Shown in pieces: positions 23,619 to 64,000 of a stretch of DNA of 64,000 bases. Origin of the DNA: a virus. A program made the translations under genes and the position numbers. Within the stretch, counting starts at the first letter, position 1, and the number at the start of each line of letters is the position of its first letter. The stretch is taken from positions 64,001-128,000 of IMG/VR virus record IMGVR_UViG_3300013126_000012; one strand, 5' to 3'. The notes beneath the pieces are model-generated. The model saw nothing but the letters and a program-made list of their open reading frames with translations. It made no database searches and was not told where the DNA came from.

Positions 23619-23996
23619 TTATCCTACTTCGAAGTAACGATTCAAATGTTGTCCAATATTTTCATATGCAATTGCCATTCGATCTTGTGCTTCTTTTAAA
23701 TCTCGTGCAGCTTGTTCAAAATCACGATAATCTTCATGCATTCGTTTGTTACCTTTTTTATGAGCAACATTTGCCATCCAATCATCACTTTCGGTCATAA
23801 TTTTATCTGCACGATCTACAATTTGTTTAACACGTTCAACAATCTGCTCTAAGTCACCTTTACCATATACCCCATCACTCATTGCAGAAAAATTAGCAAT
23901 CTCTTGAACGAATGCTTGTTTTTCTTCACGTGTCATTGGCTTAGGTTGATCTTGCAGCAATGTTTCTAAAATGAATTTTAAATTTGGTGTTTTCAT
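23619..23996 (-). CDS. Hypothetical head-cluster protein
   Basis: 125 aa, translationally coupled to the protease gene (TAATG). Confidence 0.75.
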   Translation of the reverse strand: MKTPNLKFILETLLQDQPKPMTREEKQAFVQEIANFSAMSDGVYGKGDLEQIVERVKQIVDRADKIMTESDDWMANVAHKKGNKRMHEDYRDFEQAARDLKEAQDRMAIAYENIGQHLNRYFEVG

Positions 23997-24628
23997 TATA
24001 TTATCCTACATTTTCCATCTTCACATAAAATTGATGTGATAATGTTATTTACTTTTGCGTATTTATTTGTTGTTATATTTTTATTTACTGATTCGTGCAT
24101 GTGCGTAGGACGCATAAAAGCTCCATGGGTAGACGGATTAGATACAAAGTCCCAACATATCAATTCAAAATCTTCTTGGACTTCTACGGTGCCTTCATTA
24201 CGTAATTCTTTAACTGACCCTAACCCTCGCGAGGAAATTCCCAATATAATTCCAGCTTTAAAAAGTTCCTTAAGAATTCTACCAGATGGCGTATCTAAAA
24301 TTTGTACAGCTCCATGTAAATCATCACCTTTCCACCAAATTTTTAAAACATTATGAGAAACGTTATTTAAGTTTACTACTGATGATTCTGGATGATCTAA
24401 TTCGCCTAATGCTCTATGTTGATCGATATATTCCATTTGATAACGTTGACATTCTCTTTCTAAAATACGTTTTGGATATATACGACCGTTTTGATTTTTA
24501 GCGCCTGCTCGTTGCAAAACTCCTTGAACAACAAAACCACCAGGTATTCCATATGCAGCACCCGATGATTCAGTTAATGAACCTATAGGTTTAAACGGAA
24601 TATATTCTACTATCAGTTGTTTTGACAT
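23996..24628 (-). CDS. gp21: Prohead core protease
   Basis: NQNGRIYP, ALGELDHP, GISSRGLGS, DFVSNPS. Confidence 0.95.
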   Translation of the reverse strand: MSKQLIVEYIPFKPIGSLTESSGAAYGIPGGFVVQGVLQRAGAKNQNGRIYPKRILERECQRYQMEYIDQHRALGELDHPESSVVNLNNVSHNVLKIWWKGDDLHGAVQILDTPSGRILKELFKAGIILGISSRGLGSVKELRNEGTVEVQEDFELICWDFVSNPSTHGAFMRPTHMHESVNKNITTNKYAKVNNIITSILCEDGKCRII

Positions 24629-61222: not shown

Positions 61223-62248
61223 TTATTCTAAAATTAATTGGGCGTTTTGACAACATTCAACATTCAACGCAATCAATGATTGTTCTTTAGCCTTAGCTTC
61301 AACCATAACATCAAGATCTGCAACACCATATGTAGCAGGAAGCCGCGTAATATAGTCGGCATGAGCCTGCTCCTTGATCTTGGTAAACTCCTTGTATTGT
61401 TTGTGAAATGTAGGCCATTTGGGCAAGTCGGCAATGTCAATGTTGTGATGTGCAAACATACGCTCAATAAGAATTTGTGCTTCGCGTCGACGAGACTCGC
61501 TGTAATGAGTACATTGTGTGACACCATGACGTTGCCATGTCTCACGCGCCATAAAAAATGCTTCTTGTTCGGATAAGTCACCAGTATTGAATGTGTGATG
61601 CCAATAGTCAAACGTAATAGGTATAGCAATTTCGGTATGCAACATGGAATACAATTCGCGCACGGAATACATGGAGGCCTTGTCATCATTCTCGATAACT
61701 AAACGTGCCTTGCAAGAATCTGAAAGACGATCATAGTTATGTAACCACCGTGCAATGGTGCCGGGCTTGTCATTGTAAGTAGCACCAACGTGAATATTGA
61801 TCTTGTTCTCAAAGCTAGGAGCAAAGCCCATCATATCAAAGAGCTCAGAATGCCGTTCAAGACCAGTGATGCTATTATCAACTACCGTAGCATCAGGACT
61901 ACCTAGGATATGAAATGGACCAGGATGCGTTGTGATGCGATGGCCATGCGCACGAGCAAAGTCACCAGCAGCACGTAGATGCTGCACAATAAGATCGATG
62001 TCAGGCAAATCTGCAAGCTCGTAATGATTCCAACGAGGAAAGAGCTCAGAGCCTAAACGAAACAAACGAATACCATGTGCTTCATTCCATTGCAGAATAG
62101 TTAACAAATCGCGGGCATTAGCAAGAGCAATGTCGGATGCTAATTGCAAACCGCCTAATTTAAATTTGCGATCAATCATGGCACGACCGGTACGAATACC
62201 TTGGGCGGATAACTCCATGTTGATACAGGCATAACCATAACGTATCAT
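61223..62248 (-). CDS. uvsE: UV damage endonuclease
   Basis: GYACIN, IRLFRLGSELFP, HPGPF, IHVG, IENDD, FDYWHH, HYSE, AHADY, MVEAKAKE. Confidence 0.93.
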   Translation of the reverse strand: MIRYGYACINMELSAQGIRTGRAMIDRKFKLGGLQLASDIALANARDLLTILQWNEAHGIRLFRLGSELFPRWNHYELADLPDIDLIVQHLRAAGDFARAHGHRITTHPGPFHILGSPDATVVDNSITGLERHSELFDMMGFAPSFENKINIHVGATYNDKPGTIARWLHNYDRLSDSCKARLVIENDDKASMYSVRELYSMLHTEIAIPITFDYWHHTFNTGDLSEQEAFFMARETWQRHGVTQCTHYSESRRREAQILIERMFAHHNIDIADLPKWPTFHKQYKEFTKIKEQAHADYITRLPATYGVADLDVMVEAKAKEQSLIALNVECCQNAQLILE

Positions 62249-62262
62249 ATATGTTTTATTTT

Positions 62263-62291
62263 ATATTATGTAAAATGTTTGAAAAATCCAA
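62263..62291 (-). promoter_or_regulatory. Sigma70-type promoter of uvsE
   Basis: TTGGAT-N17-TAATAT. Confidence 0.65.
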
Positions 62292-62400
62292 ATTACGTTA
62301 TTTTTTTTTGCATGATATTTATATGTAATAAAAAGGACGTAATGAAAAATATTTTATCAGAAAACATGTTGCGTTTCGGAACCAAAAACTTATCCGAAGC
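62283..62400 (+). repeat. Direct repeat copy 1 (promoter, RBS and leader cassette)
   Basis: Near-identical to 63483-63599: one T-tract indel and five synonymous changes in the coding part. Confidence 0.95.
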
Positions 62401-62923
62401 TGCACAACGGCAACTAGTTGTCAAATCAATCATGGAAACCATTAATCAGCATGGATTGCATAACGCCGTACGACGAAGGCTGATGGAACAGACCGTTAAC
62501 GAGAATGTAACAACGTACGTTGAAAACTACCGTAAGGCCGTTATAACAGCTTTTCCGAATACGTTTGCCAATGTGGCGGGGAAAAACGATGCCACCGGAT
62601 ACATACCGTTTCCCGGAAATAACCCTCAAGAATACATATATGTTTATACAAATGGAGCAGTAACATTGCCTAACGATGCACCAAAATTGAAGACCCAGCT
62701 ACAGAATGTGCACGATAAGGTTGTATTAAATGGCGTTAGCAATAACGATGCAAACTTAAAGAAATATATTGCTAATCTTACGCAAAACCAATACCCACCC
62801 GAAACTCCACAAGGAATAGCATTAAAATCATTTAATCAACCCAATATTATAGCTATGAACAAGGCATTTTTGGCTTATAAAACATTTTTGGACAGCCAAA
62901 ACCCGCCAGCAGCAAGCCAGTAA
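62342..62923 (+). CDS. Hypothetical protein with MKNILSENMLRFGTKNLSEA leader
   Basis: Start moved to ATG 62342, which follows ATATTTATA and AAAGGA. Confidence 0.8.
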   Translation: MKNILSENMLRFGTKNLSEAAQRQLVVKSIMETINQHGLHNAVRRRLMEQTVNENVTTYVENYRKAVITAFPNTFANVAGKNDATGYIPFPGNNPQEYIYVYTNGAVTLPNDAPKLKTQLQNVHDKVVLNGVSNNDANLKKYIANLTQNQYPPETPQGIALKSFNQPNIIAMNKAFLAYKTFLDSQNPPAASQ

Positions 62924-62978
62924 TCAACAGCTAAGATGGTAAAAAAGCCTTAATTTTTAAGTTTTAAAATATACATAG

Positions 62979-63006
62979 AAAAAGCTCTATAGCGGAGCTT
63001 TTTTTT
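62979..63006. terminator. Bidirectional terminator between convergent genes
   Basis: AAAAAGCTC-TATAGCG-GAGCTTTTTTTT. Confidence 0.8.
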
Positions 63007-63020
63007 GTGTTCAATAAATT

Positions 63021-63434
63021 TCAATATGTTTTAATAATATCAAAATCAATCCATTTCTGATATTTCACTAAATCATCAGTAAACCAATACCAAGTAACTG
63101 ATTGATGCCCTGTCATTTCAATCAATAAACCATTATCCCATGCATCTAATATTTTAACCTGGATCGTGTTGTTTATTTTTAATACAGAAATTGGTGATTC
63201 ATACGCGAGTTTGTTGTCTTTAAATTTTGTTAAATGATTGTTGTTTAAATCTAAAACATACAAATTATTAACTTTTCTAGGAGATTCTTCAATCATCCTC
63301 GGATTTGCAAAAACTTCAGAAACAGTTTGCGAAGAATCTCCATAAAATGATTGAACTTCATTGACTTGAATTTTTATTATTTGTGACTGAATGTTTGTAA
63401 CAAATAAAATAGCAATACACACTAAACGTTTCAT
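63021..63434 (-). CDS. Exported hypothetical protein
   Basis: Signal peptide MKRLVCIAILFVTNIQS followed by Gln. Confidence 0.7.
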   Translation of the reverse strand: MKRLVCIAILFVTNIQSQIIKIQVNEVQSFYGDSSQTVSEVFANPRMIEESPRKVNNLYVLDLNNNHLTKFKDNKLAYESPISVLKINNTIQVKILDAWDNGLLIEMTGHQSVTWYWFTDDLVKYQKWIDFDIIKTY

Positions 63435-63462
63435 AACTGGTTAACTTTTTAATTATATTACA

Positions 63463-63491
63463 ATAATATAAAATAAAAGATTAAAATCCAA
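63463..63491 (-). promoter_or_regulatory. Sigma70-type promoter
   Basis: TTGGAT-N17-TATTAT. Confidence 0.65.
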
Positions 63492-63599
63492 ATTACGTTA
63501 TTTTTTTTGCATGATATTTATATGTAATAAAAAGGACGTAATGAAAAATATTTTATCAGAAAACATGCTGCGGTTTGGAACCAAAAATTTATCTGAAGC
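63483..63599 (+). repeat. Direct repeat copy 2
   Basis: Matches 62283-62400. Confidence 0.95.
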
Positions 63600-64000
63600 A
63601 ACCATACGAAGATTAACTGAAGCTGAAGACCCAATTGATCCGGCAGCAATTGGCTTTCCGAATTGTCCTGCAAAAACTGTGAAAGACTTTGTTGATTGGT
63701 ATATAAAATATCTTACACCATCAACTGGTTGTGTTGGACAAACATTGCTTATCATGAAACCAGAATTTGGATCGTTCAACCTATATGAAAAAAATTTGGT
63801 TGCAAGTATTGTTGGAAAAGTAACAGTAGCATCTAGTTTTAATTTTTCATATCGATCAGGGAAAACCGATCCTCAAGGTACGACTAAGGATTCTTCCGTT
63901 TTCATATGGGATACTGCAGCAACTAGAAATTATGATTGGGCTAAACAAACAGTAAAAATTAGCGATACTGAAACATACCTCCCGGGTTTATACAATGTAC
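63541..64000 (+). CDS. Second protein with the MKNILSENMLRFGTKNLSEA leader (runs off the window)
   Basis: Not in the ORF track. Open frame MKNILSENMLRFGTKNLSEATIRRLTEAEDPIDPAAIGFPNC... to the window end. Confidence 0.8.
   Translation, partial: MKNILSENMLRFGTKNLSEATIRRLTEAEDPIDPAAIGFPNCPAKTVKDFVDWYIKYLTPSTGCVGQTLLIMKPEFGSFNLYEKNLVASIVGKVTVASSFNFSYRSGKTDPQGTTKDSSVFIWDTAATRNYDWAKQTVKISDTETYLPGLYNV

Follow-up and report, generated by a model that had tools for sequence, protein, structure and literature searches.

A repeated promoter-leader unit and a candidate capsid-targeting leader on unrelated proteins of an uncultured T4-like phage

The stretch of DNA analyzed here (the window) comprises 64,000 nucleotides (nt) of the IMG/VR virus record IMGVR_UViG_3300013126_000012 and corresponds to bases 64001-128000 of a 159,586-bp genome with direct terminal repeats and a G+C content of 34%. 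Close to the right end of the window, a 118-nt unit that combines expression signals with the first codons of a gene occurs twice, and the two genes it opens encode proteins that share an N-terminal leader, followed in each by a different C-terminal part (here termed the payload). The features of this locus, and a protease gene located elsewhere in the window, are as follows (window coordinates unless stated otherwise; aa, amino acids):

62283-62400, plus strand: unit copy 1 (118 nt, expression signals and leader), repeat families D1 and D3, 95% match to copy 2
63483-63599, plus strand: unit copy 2, from the repeat comparison with copy 1
62286-62293 and 63486-63493, no strand assigned: ATCCAAAT box (ATTTGGAT on the minus strand), conserved upstream of the leader genes of relatives
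62316-62323 and 63515-63522, plus strand: TATTTATA late-promoter-like box, starting 26 nt before the ATG in both copies
62332-62337 and 63531-63536, plus strand: AAAGGA ribosome-binding site, with similar sites in most related leader upstream regions
62342-62923, plus strand: leader gene 1, 193 aa, leader residues 1-49 (62342-62488) ending in L-M-E
63541-64000, continuing to genome position 128371, plus strand: leader gene 2, 276 aa, 20-aa leader and 7-aa basic linker ending in L-T-E at residue 27
61223-62248, minus strand: gene for a UvdE UV-damage endonuclease (Pfam PF03851, E = 1.1e-58), the conserved left border of the island, also in relatives
62979-63003, no strand assigned: bidirectional terminator (A-run, hairpin, T-run) between the convergent gene 1 and exp1
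63021-63434, minus strand: exp1, 137-aa protein with a signal-peptide-like N-terminus, no Pfam match
23996-24628 (genome 87996-88628), minus strand: gp21-type prohead protease (Peptidase_S77, PF03420, 114.8 bits, E = 2.8e-34)

The two copies start 1200 bp apart, as a preliminary description of this DNA had reported for a unit of about 118 bp, and are 95% identical across a 99-nt core, with an identical 26-nt left end. A 27-nt piece of the leader has 2 matches when up to 3 mismatches are allowed; 100 shuffles give an expectation of 0.00. Within each copy the order is ATCCAAAT, a T-run, TATTTATA, AAAGGA, the ATG (62342 in copy 1, 63541 in copy 2) and 20 codons. The non-coding parts (59 nt) differ solely by one T in the T-run, while the 20 codons have six third-position differences, each of them synonymous, and encode identical 20-aa peptides; the preliminary description had recognized the synonymy and counted five differences, the sixth being base 62401. 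It had also left room for further copies, and these exist: we found four in the source genome and 115 in 66 related contigs. The third leader gene starts at genome position 128935, i.e. 935 bases beyond the end of the window; its leader DNA is 93% identical and the first ~50 aa of its product match gene 1, but its promoter region has diverged. The fourth, diverged leader is carried by a 91-aa protein encoded on the minus strand at genome position 61617, ~65 kb away. Nearly all genes of the genome are located on the minus strand, and three of the leader genes are among the very few on the plus strand.

Architecture and conservation of the leader

To collect relatives, we searched metagenome proteins with the leader (residues 1-50 of the gene 1 product) and scanned IMG/VR for loci. 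The 50-residue query matched 155 metagenome proteins, the N-terminal 50 residues of which share a mean identity of 76%, and the C-terminal parts of the 120 matches listed fall into 16 clusters. The IMG/VR scan yielded 115 leader open reading frames (ORFs) in 66 loci, with a maximum of six in one locus. Each of the 115 has its E-N-M core motif 5-11 residues downstream of a Met and at most 51 codons from the preceding stop. The leader proteins found in relatives comprise 211 distinct sequences.

Among 93 distinct leader DNAs, the proportion of synonymous differences (pS) is 0.68, i.e. near saturation, versus 0.14 for nonsynonymous ones (pN). Nine leader residues (L, E, N, R, F, G, K, N and L) show little or no variation, each being encoded by 2-5 synonymous codons, and the invariant Arg and the invariant Leu each use five different codons. 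Members of one payload family are only ~50% identical in the payload, with hardly any variation in the leader. This codon pattern indicates that the leader is selected as a peptide, under purifying selection, in agreement with what had been proposed from the window.

The leader is composite. It begins with a tag of 7-10 aa that ends in LxE, continues with the block R-F-G-T-K-N-L-S-E (the invariant block reads N-M-x-R-F-G-T-K-N-L-S-E), and is completed by either a basic linker of ~10 aa or a helical segment of 30 aa, each again ending in LxE. The tag has the form K-N-(I/L)-L-(S/A)-E, preceded in some copies by M-I-K-L. In the M-I-K-L-K-N-I-L-A-E form, positions 4, 7, 8 and 10 are occupied by L, I, L and E, respectively, and it is only in this form that tag position 4 is hydrophobic. 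Judged from the sequences, the functional boundary of the leader usually lies at about residue 27-50 rather than at residue 20. Thus, of the 20-aa leader originally described, the shared 20 aa stand, and the full extent is often longer.

The motif (L/I)xE recurs at defined places of this architecture. The first site conforms to [LI]xE in 210 of the 211 distinct leader proteins and the +12 site, at the end of the R-F-G-T-K-N-L-S-E block, in 188/211. The end of the ~50-aa long domain is [LI]xE in 133 of the 137 long-class proteins, and among the 74 short-linker proteins 47 have [LI]xE 20-29 residues after the first site. One locus (L032) contains adjacent paralogues with payloads 64% identical, one with a 10-aa tag and the other with the long leader and linker; in both, the common payload starts at the same residue, directly after L-x-E. 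This exchange of tags is the clearest single observation in favor of a removable leader.

The leader does not resemble a Sec-type signal peptide, in which a hydrophobic core of about 10 or more residues comes after a basic N-terminus: it is a polar, charged stretch that lacks any hydrophobic run, whereas the neighboring minus-strand genes encode such cores. Blastn and tblastn searches of the unit and the leader against 50,697 phage records revealed neither in a cultured phage, and a full-text literature search for the leader motif found no paper. Gene callers often begin leader genes too early, within the conserved promoter (window 62279-62341 and 63511-63540), and therefore public proteins (e.g. 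P0013, P0073 and P0125) carry a spurious, conserved-looking N-terminal extension N-P-N-F/Y-V-I-F-F.

Payloads, promoters and the mosaic island

Beyond the leader, the proteins are unrelated, as the preliminary description had concluded for the two in the window. BLASTP comparisons between the C-terminal parts of the four leader proteins of the source genome gave E-values above 0.6, and hhalign comparisons of three families aligned only 28, 56 and 28 columns, all of them in the leader. The 109 leader genes with DNA sequence fall into 64 payload clusters, which corresponds to at least 64 families, with payload lengths from ~70 to ~500 aa. The payload of leader gene 1 has no Pfam or PHROG match; three relatives were found, all leader-bearing. 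Relatives of gene 2, at 31-65% identity, all possess a leader or a tag, one orthologue having the M-I-K-L form and another lacking the R-F-G block. Searches with payloads 1 and 2 alone returned leader-bearing relatives only, and no leaderless ones, so the proposal that any captured ORF can be accepted by the unit, with its implied origin of the payloads, was not supported.

Searches of Pfam and PHROGs with the four leader proteins, 10 long payloads of relatives and 10 representatives of payload clusters gave only chance-level matches (E above 0.01), and PDB sequence profiles revealed no payload relative. AlphaFold predicted payload 3 (genome 128935-129630) as an alpha/beta structure with a predicted local distance difference test (pLDDT) score of ~90 over residues 51-210, and payload 2 with a moderate pLDDT of ~80; the predicted secondary-structure layouts of the two differ. 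The leader has a pLDDT of 45-60 beside the confidently modeled payload, which fits a detachable extension. Neither payload model has a neighbor detectable by Foldseek (PDB, BFVD) or VIA-align (48,161 chains); the fold searches returned generic helix matches to the leader only, with Z-scores below 5. A missing fold match does not in itself establish a new fold.

Two further motifs were observed in the payloads. Some short leader proteins have an acidic D-x-N-N-N-G-Y-P-D motif directly after the leader, which resembles calcium-binding thrombospondin-type-3-like repeats; the carriers are encoded at genome 61342-61617 (L006) and in loci L049-L053, L063, L064, L067, L070 and L072. In the largest payload cluster (P0002-P0097), many members share (F/Y)-N-x-x-E ~10-15 residues before the C-terminus, which may be a second conserved element.

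The upstream DNA of the leader genes shares a box with that of virion genes, at the same spacing. The most enriched upstream 8-mers in gene orientation are ATATTTAT and TATTTATA. Across the genome (e.g. at window 9559, 12115 and 28084, i.e. genome 73559, 76115 and 92084), TATTTATA occurs in 42 minus-strand and 4 plus-strand copies, two of the latter being those within the two units. It is located 20-35 nt before the starts of the sheath gene, the portal gene, a tube-like gene and the gene upstream of the capsid gene, and likewise before most genes of the virion block at 68-121 kb. In relatives it occurs at up to 1 mismatch in 82 of 95 distinct leader-gene upstream regions, most commonly at -33/-34; the regions without it include those of downstream genes in same-strand tandems. 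Since the box precedes virion genes and leader genes alike, its role as the late-promoter motif of this phage, and with it the rightward late promoter of the preliminary description, is supported by analogy. A search for a gp55-like late sigma factor with Pfam and PHROGs did not identify one. A GroEL-like chaperonin gene (genome 4723-6333) also lies behind a late box, and the cultured Flavobacterium phage immuto encodes GroES and GroEL as well.

The ATCCAAAT box recurs in many related leader upstream regions, and ATTTGGAT also precedes early-type genes in the source genome; the box may be part of the leftward promoter. The more specific proposal of a leftward sigma70-type -35 box was not confirmed: the sites returned by a generic sigma-70 scan were no more numerous than in shuffled sequences, and the scan did not single out the box.

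About a dozen otherwise unrelated proteins of the source genome begin with M-I-R-L-K-x-L-L-x-E, almost always behind a late box. Their genes are located at genome positions 12858, 15246, 15647, 16732, 17148, 53864, 62039, 108163 (window 44163), 138829, 139974 and 150976. Several of these short-tag genes may have leaderless mRNAs, since the distance from the late box to the ATG is only 6-10 nt.

The leader genes lie in an island whose leftward genes differ, as had been noted for the window, where the neighbors are the UvdE endonuclease gene and exp1. Three minus-strand genes with signal-peptide-like N-termini (window 63021-63482; genome 128374-128860 and 129696-130330) alternate with the leader genes, and the alternation recurs in relatives. 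The exp1 and exp2 proteins are 33% identical (E = 2e-14), while the third exported-type gene is unrelated; nevertheless all three share ~50 nt of upstream DNA of their own, containing TATAATTAAAAAG. The element AATTAAAAA, which has 42 minus-strand and 5 plus-strand occurrences, may mark early mRNAs. Folding of window 62925-63020, the region of the bidirectional terminator, gives a stem of 11-12 bp followed by U8 (z-score -2.4).

In the eight relatives we examined, the island is likewise found beside uvdE and holds 2-6 leader genes of differing content, followed in several of them by a conserved downstream gene. The upstream regions of the leader genes form 65 clusters, which combine with the payloads in a mosaic manner: one upstream type precedes five payload families and the type of the window copies precedes three, while payload 1, found here behind the window-copy type, stands in locus L011 behind the type of gene 3. 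Such combinations are expected if the promoter-leader DNA is a recombination anchor, and thus favor that element of the preliminary description.

Possible function of the leader and alternative explanations

The presence of gp23 (244 bits), Peptidase_S77 and T4-type portal and sheath genes, all identified in the genome, assigns the phage at the sequence level to the T4-like group. The closest cultured phage is immuto, with a capsid protein 56% identical. Because of this relationship and the Bacteroidota-style signal peptides on neighboring genes, the host is probably a member of Bacteroidota, and the setting is an uncultured clade of freshwater T4-like Bacteroidota phages. The S77 protease was found in all five large leader-bearing contigs tested and is 80-91% identical to that of the window phage; hence these contigs represent one clade, in which the leader is about as conserved as core genes. 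Gp23 is present in four of five other contigs.

The explanation we favor, with moderate confidence, is that the leader is a capsid-targeting, protease-removed peptide and the whole a variant of the T4 internal-protein system, from which it would differ by a longer, multi-site leader fused to a late-promoter cassette. By analogy with T4 internal proteins, loading into the capsid, trimming and injection are the most likely fate of the products. Transcription would start late at the TATTTATA box, a shared motif, and give a short 5' untranslated region with AAAGGA. The product would begin with a leader conserved, at the sequence level, as a peptide: the tag, the invariant block, then the linker or the helical segment. 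As in T4, the leader would dock the protein on the scaffolding core during prohead assembly, and the gp21-type S77 protease, the enzyme proposed to remove the leader, would cut after Glu at two or three (L/I)xE sites and free the payload in the head. The payload could then enter the next host with the DNA and act early, e.g. against host defenses. At the DNA level, 60-150 bp of near-identical promoter-leader sequence and a terminator per gene would let homologous recombination swap, add or delete payloads, and this exchange would take place in one island between uvdE and the conserved downstream gene. An (L/I)xE within the first 8-17 residues is found also in the protease itself and in the products of genes between the portal and capsid genes.

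Several observations weigh against this explanation. The middle N-L-S-E site is absent from 23 of the 211 leader proteins (11%), and among the 74 short-linker proteins 14 have no further [LI]xE and 13 more have one only far downstream. The observed/expected ratio of [LI]xE is 0.97 in the payloads versus 1.28 in the other proteins of the phage, a difference too weak to be a clear mark of exposure of the payloads to the protease. The scaffold and core genes were not identified by Pfam or PHROGs and are labeled by position only. A profile search found no leader match in the genome of immuto (a scan of 67 kb of it gave one loose pattern match and no M-I-R-L-K-type tag). Two of the short-tag proteins are peptidoglycan hydrolases, an unusual head cargo for a T4-like phage: one combines a lysozyme with LysM, the other, with a looser form of the tag, combines an M23 peptidase with a tail lysozyme. 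Finally, a T4-style targeting peptide would require far less constraint than is seen in the R-F-G-x-K-N-L block; the block may therefore have another or an additional role, and it hints at a specific partner.

The last point leads to the main alternative, which we regard as unlikely, namely that the leader is an uncleaved adaptor, a conserved N-terminal docking module that holds variable C-terminal domains on a conserved partner. The partner could be the virion exterior, with decoration or adhesin proteins as the products, or a conserved phage or host protein; the anchors of tail fibers and spikes offer a parallel. Conservation of the R-F-G-x-K-N-L block and the 30-aa helical segment as strong as that of the protease suggests a specific binding interface, the predicted beta-rich payload models without a known fold would be compatible with binding domains, and several paralogues per genome are typical of receptor-binding arsenals. 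On the other hand, the tag that replaces the long leader on the same payload in L032 is, at 10 aa, too short for a stable anchor. Moreover, (L/I)xE marks the junction in nearly all long-class and most short-class proteins, structure prediction shows the leader as disordered or detached from the payload, and the leader genes are located outside the tail and fiber modules.

Somewhat less probable still is a broader interpretation of the island as a two-strand array, in which late, injected proteins are paired and shuffled with early, exported ones, and the R-F-G-T-K-N-L block is a new, portable 20-aa loading signal added to a T4-style tag. A pair could consist, e.g., of an injected effector and an envelope-level exclusion or protection factor. 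If this holds, the tag by itself would reveal the complete set of injected proteins (at least 64 families) in a clade of Bacteroidota phages that is uncultured and widespread.

It is improbable that the leader genes are an ordinary paralogous family, which arose by tandem duplication and diverged fast except in its N-terminal domain, with neither targeting nor cassette exchange. The similarity of the exported-type genes next to leader genes 2 and 3 (33% identity, with ~330 nt around them aligning at 68%) does indicate that part of the array arose by tandem duplication, and within single payload families the leader has changed far less rapidly than the payload. However, such a family is hard to reconcile with profile comparisons devoid of payload similarity, the wide range of payload lengths, the dissimilar predicted layouts of payloads 2 and 3, an upstream unit shared by up to five payload families with one family behind different units, and similarity that ends abruptly at the LxE junction. 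Tandem paralogues homologous over their full length are rejected by the BLASTP and hhalign results given above.

That the conserved stretch acts as nucleic acid (a translation-initiation enhancer, or a promoter and initially transcribed region) and encodes the peptide incidentally is very improbable: the two window copies differ less in their 59 non-coding nt than at the synonymous leader sites, and several short-tag genes have the late box close to the ATG, but synonymous sites near saturation with invariant amino acids, and up to five codons for Arg and Leu, rule out a purely DNA- or RNA-level element.

If capsid targeting is indeed the function of the leader, then one searchable 20-aa signature flags every capsid-loaded, host-delivered protein of the clade (at least 64 orphan families). 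The payloads would be prime candidates for new anti-defense proteins, by analogy with T4 Ip1-3. To our knowledge, phage counter-defense in Bacteroidota is almost unexplored.

Comparison with known systems

The closest parallel is provided by the internal proteins of T4 (IPI, IPII, IPIII, Alt and more than 30 Ip variants), unrelated small proteins that have only an N-terminal leader in common (PMC3012670, PMC12373910). The protease of gp21 type and a leader ending in (L/I)xE are common to both systems: T4 gp21 cuts after Glu in L/I-X-E, and in its 10-aa capsid-targeting sequence residues 4 and 7 serve targeting and residues 8 and 10 processing (PMC9026906). M-I-K-L-K-N-I-L-A-E agrees with this scheme, being hydrophobic at positions 4 and 7 and having L and E at 8 and 10, respectively. 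The internal-protein loci of T-even phages are also hypervariable clusters of genes with conserved regulatory DNA (PMC2839356, PMC12373910, PMC3012670), and regulatory cassettes drive the shuffling that has given more than 30 known internal-protein variants (PMC2839356). On the other hand, the T4 leader M-K-T-Y-Q-E-F-I-A-E has no alignable similarity to the leader described here, only the positional pattern being shared. It comprises 10 aa, as opposed to 20-50 aa with the invariant R-F-G-T-K-N-L block and two or three candidate sites. The late box of T4 is TATAAATA, compared to TATTTATA here, and in the present phage the leader genes oppose the main strand of the genome and alternate with early-type genes for exported proteins. 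The host, too, probably differs, being a member of Bacteroidota.

The propeptides of head proteins in phiKZ-like phages and SPN3US resemble the leader in being long, N-terminal and equipped with several redundant Glu-specific sites for a gp21-related protease (PMC9026906). They differ in that their sites are of the S/A-x-E type, that they are not one shared portable sequence, and that they belong to giant phages with an inner body.

If the favored explanation is correct, the principle of loading by leader and protease known from T4 is ancient and has given rise in this clade to a longer, multi-site leader, which would then provide a second natural protein-packaging tag.

With respect to its DNA, the unit is reminiscent of the PeSL (early promoter and stem-loop) cassettes (Arbiol et al. 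2010, PMC2839356; Comeau et al. 2014, PMC4122927), which also place ~100 bp of conserved promoter DNA before orphan genes, in hyperplastic regions with terminator-insulated genes and mosaic combinations that point to recombination between cassettes. PeSL cassettes, however, consist of an early sigma-70-like promoter and a GC stem-loop upstream of the start and do not reach the coding region. The unit has a late-type promoter and no stem-loop, a hairpin being found instead at the 3' end of the gene, and its homology continues into the ORF for 60-150 nt, where it encodes a selected peptide. Given the late box and the downstream hairpin, the unit is therefore analogous to PeSL cassettes and not a member of them. 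The mosaic of upstream types and payloads broadens the model of cassette shuffling in T4-type hyperplastic regions to include an anchor that reaches into the coding sequence.

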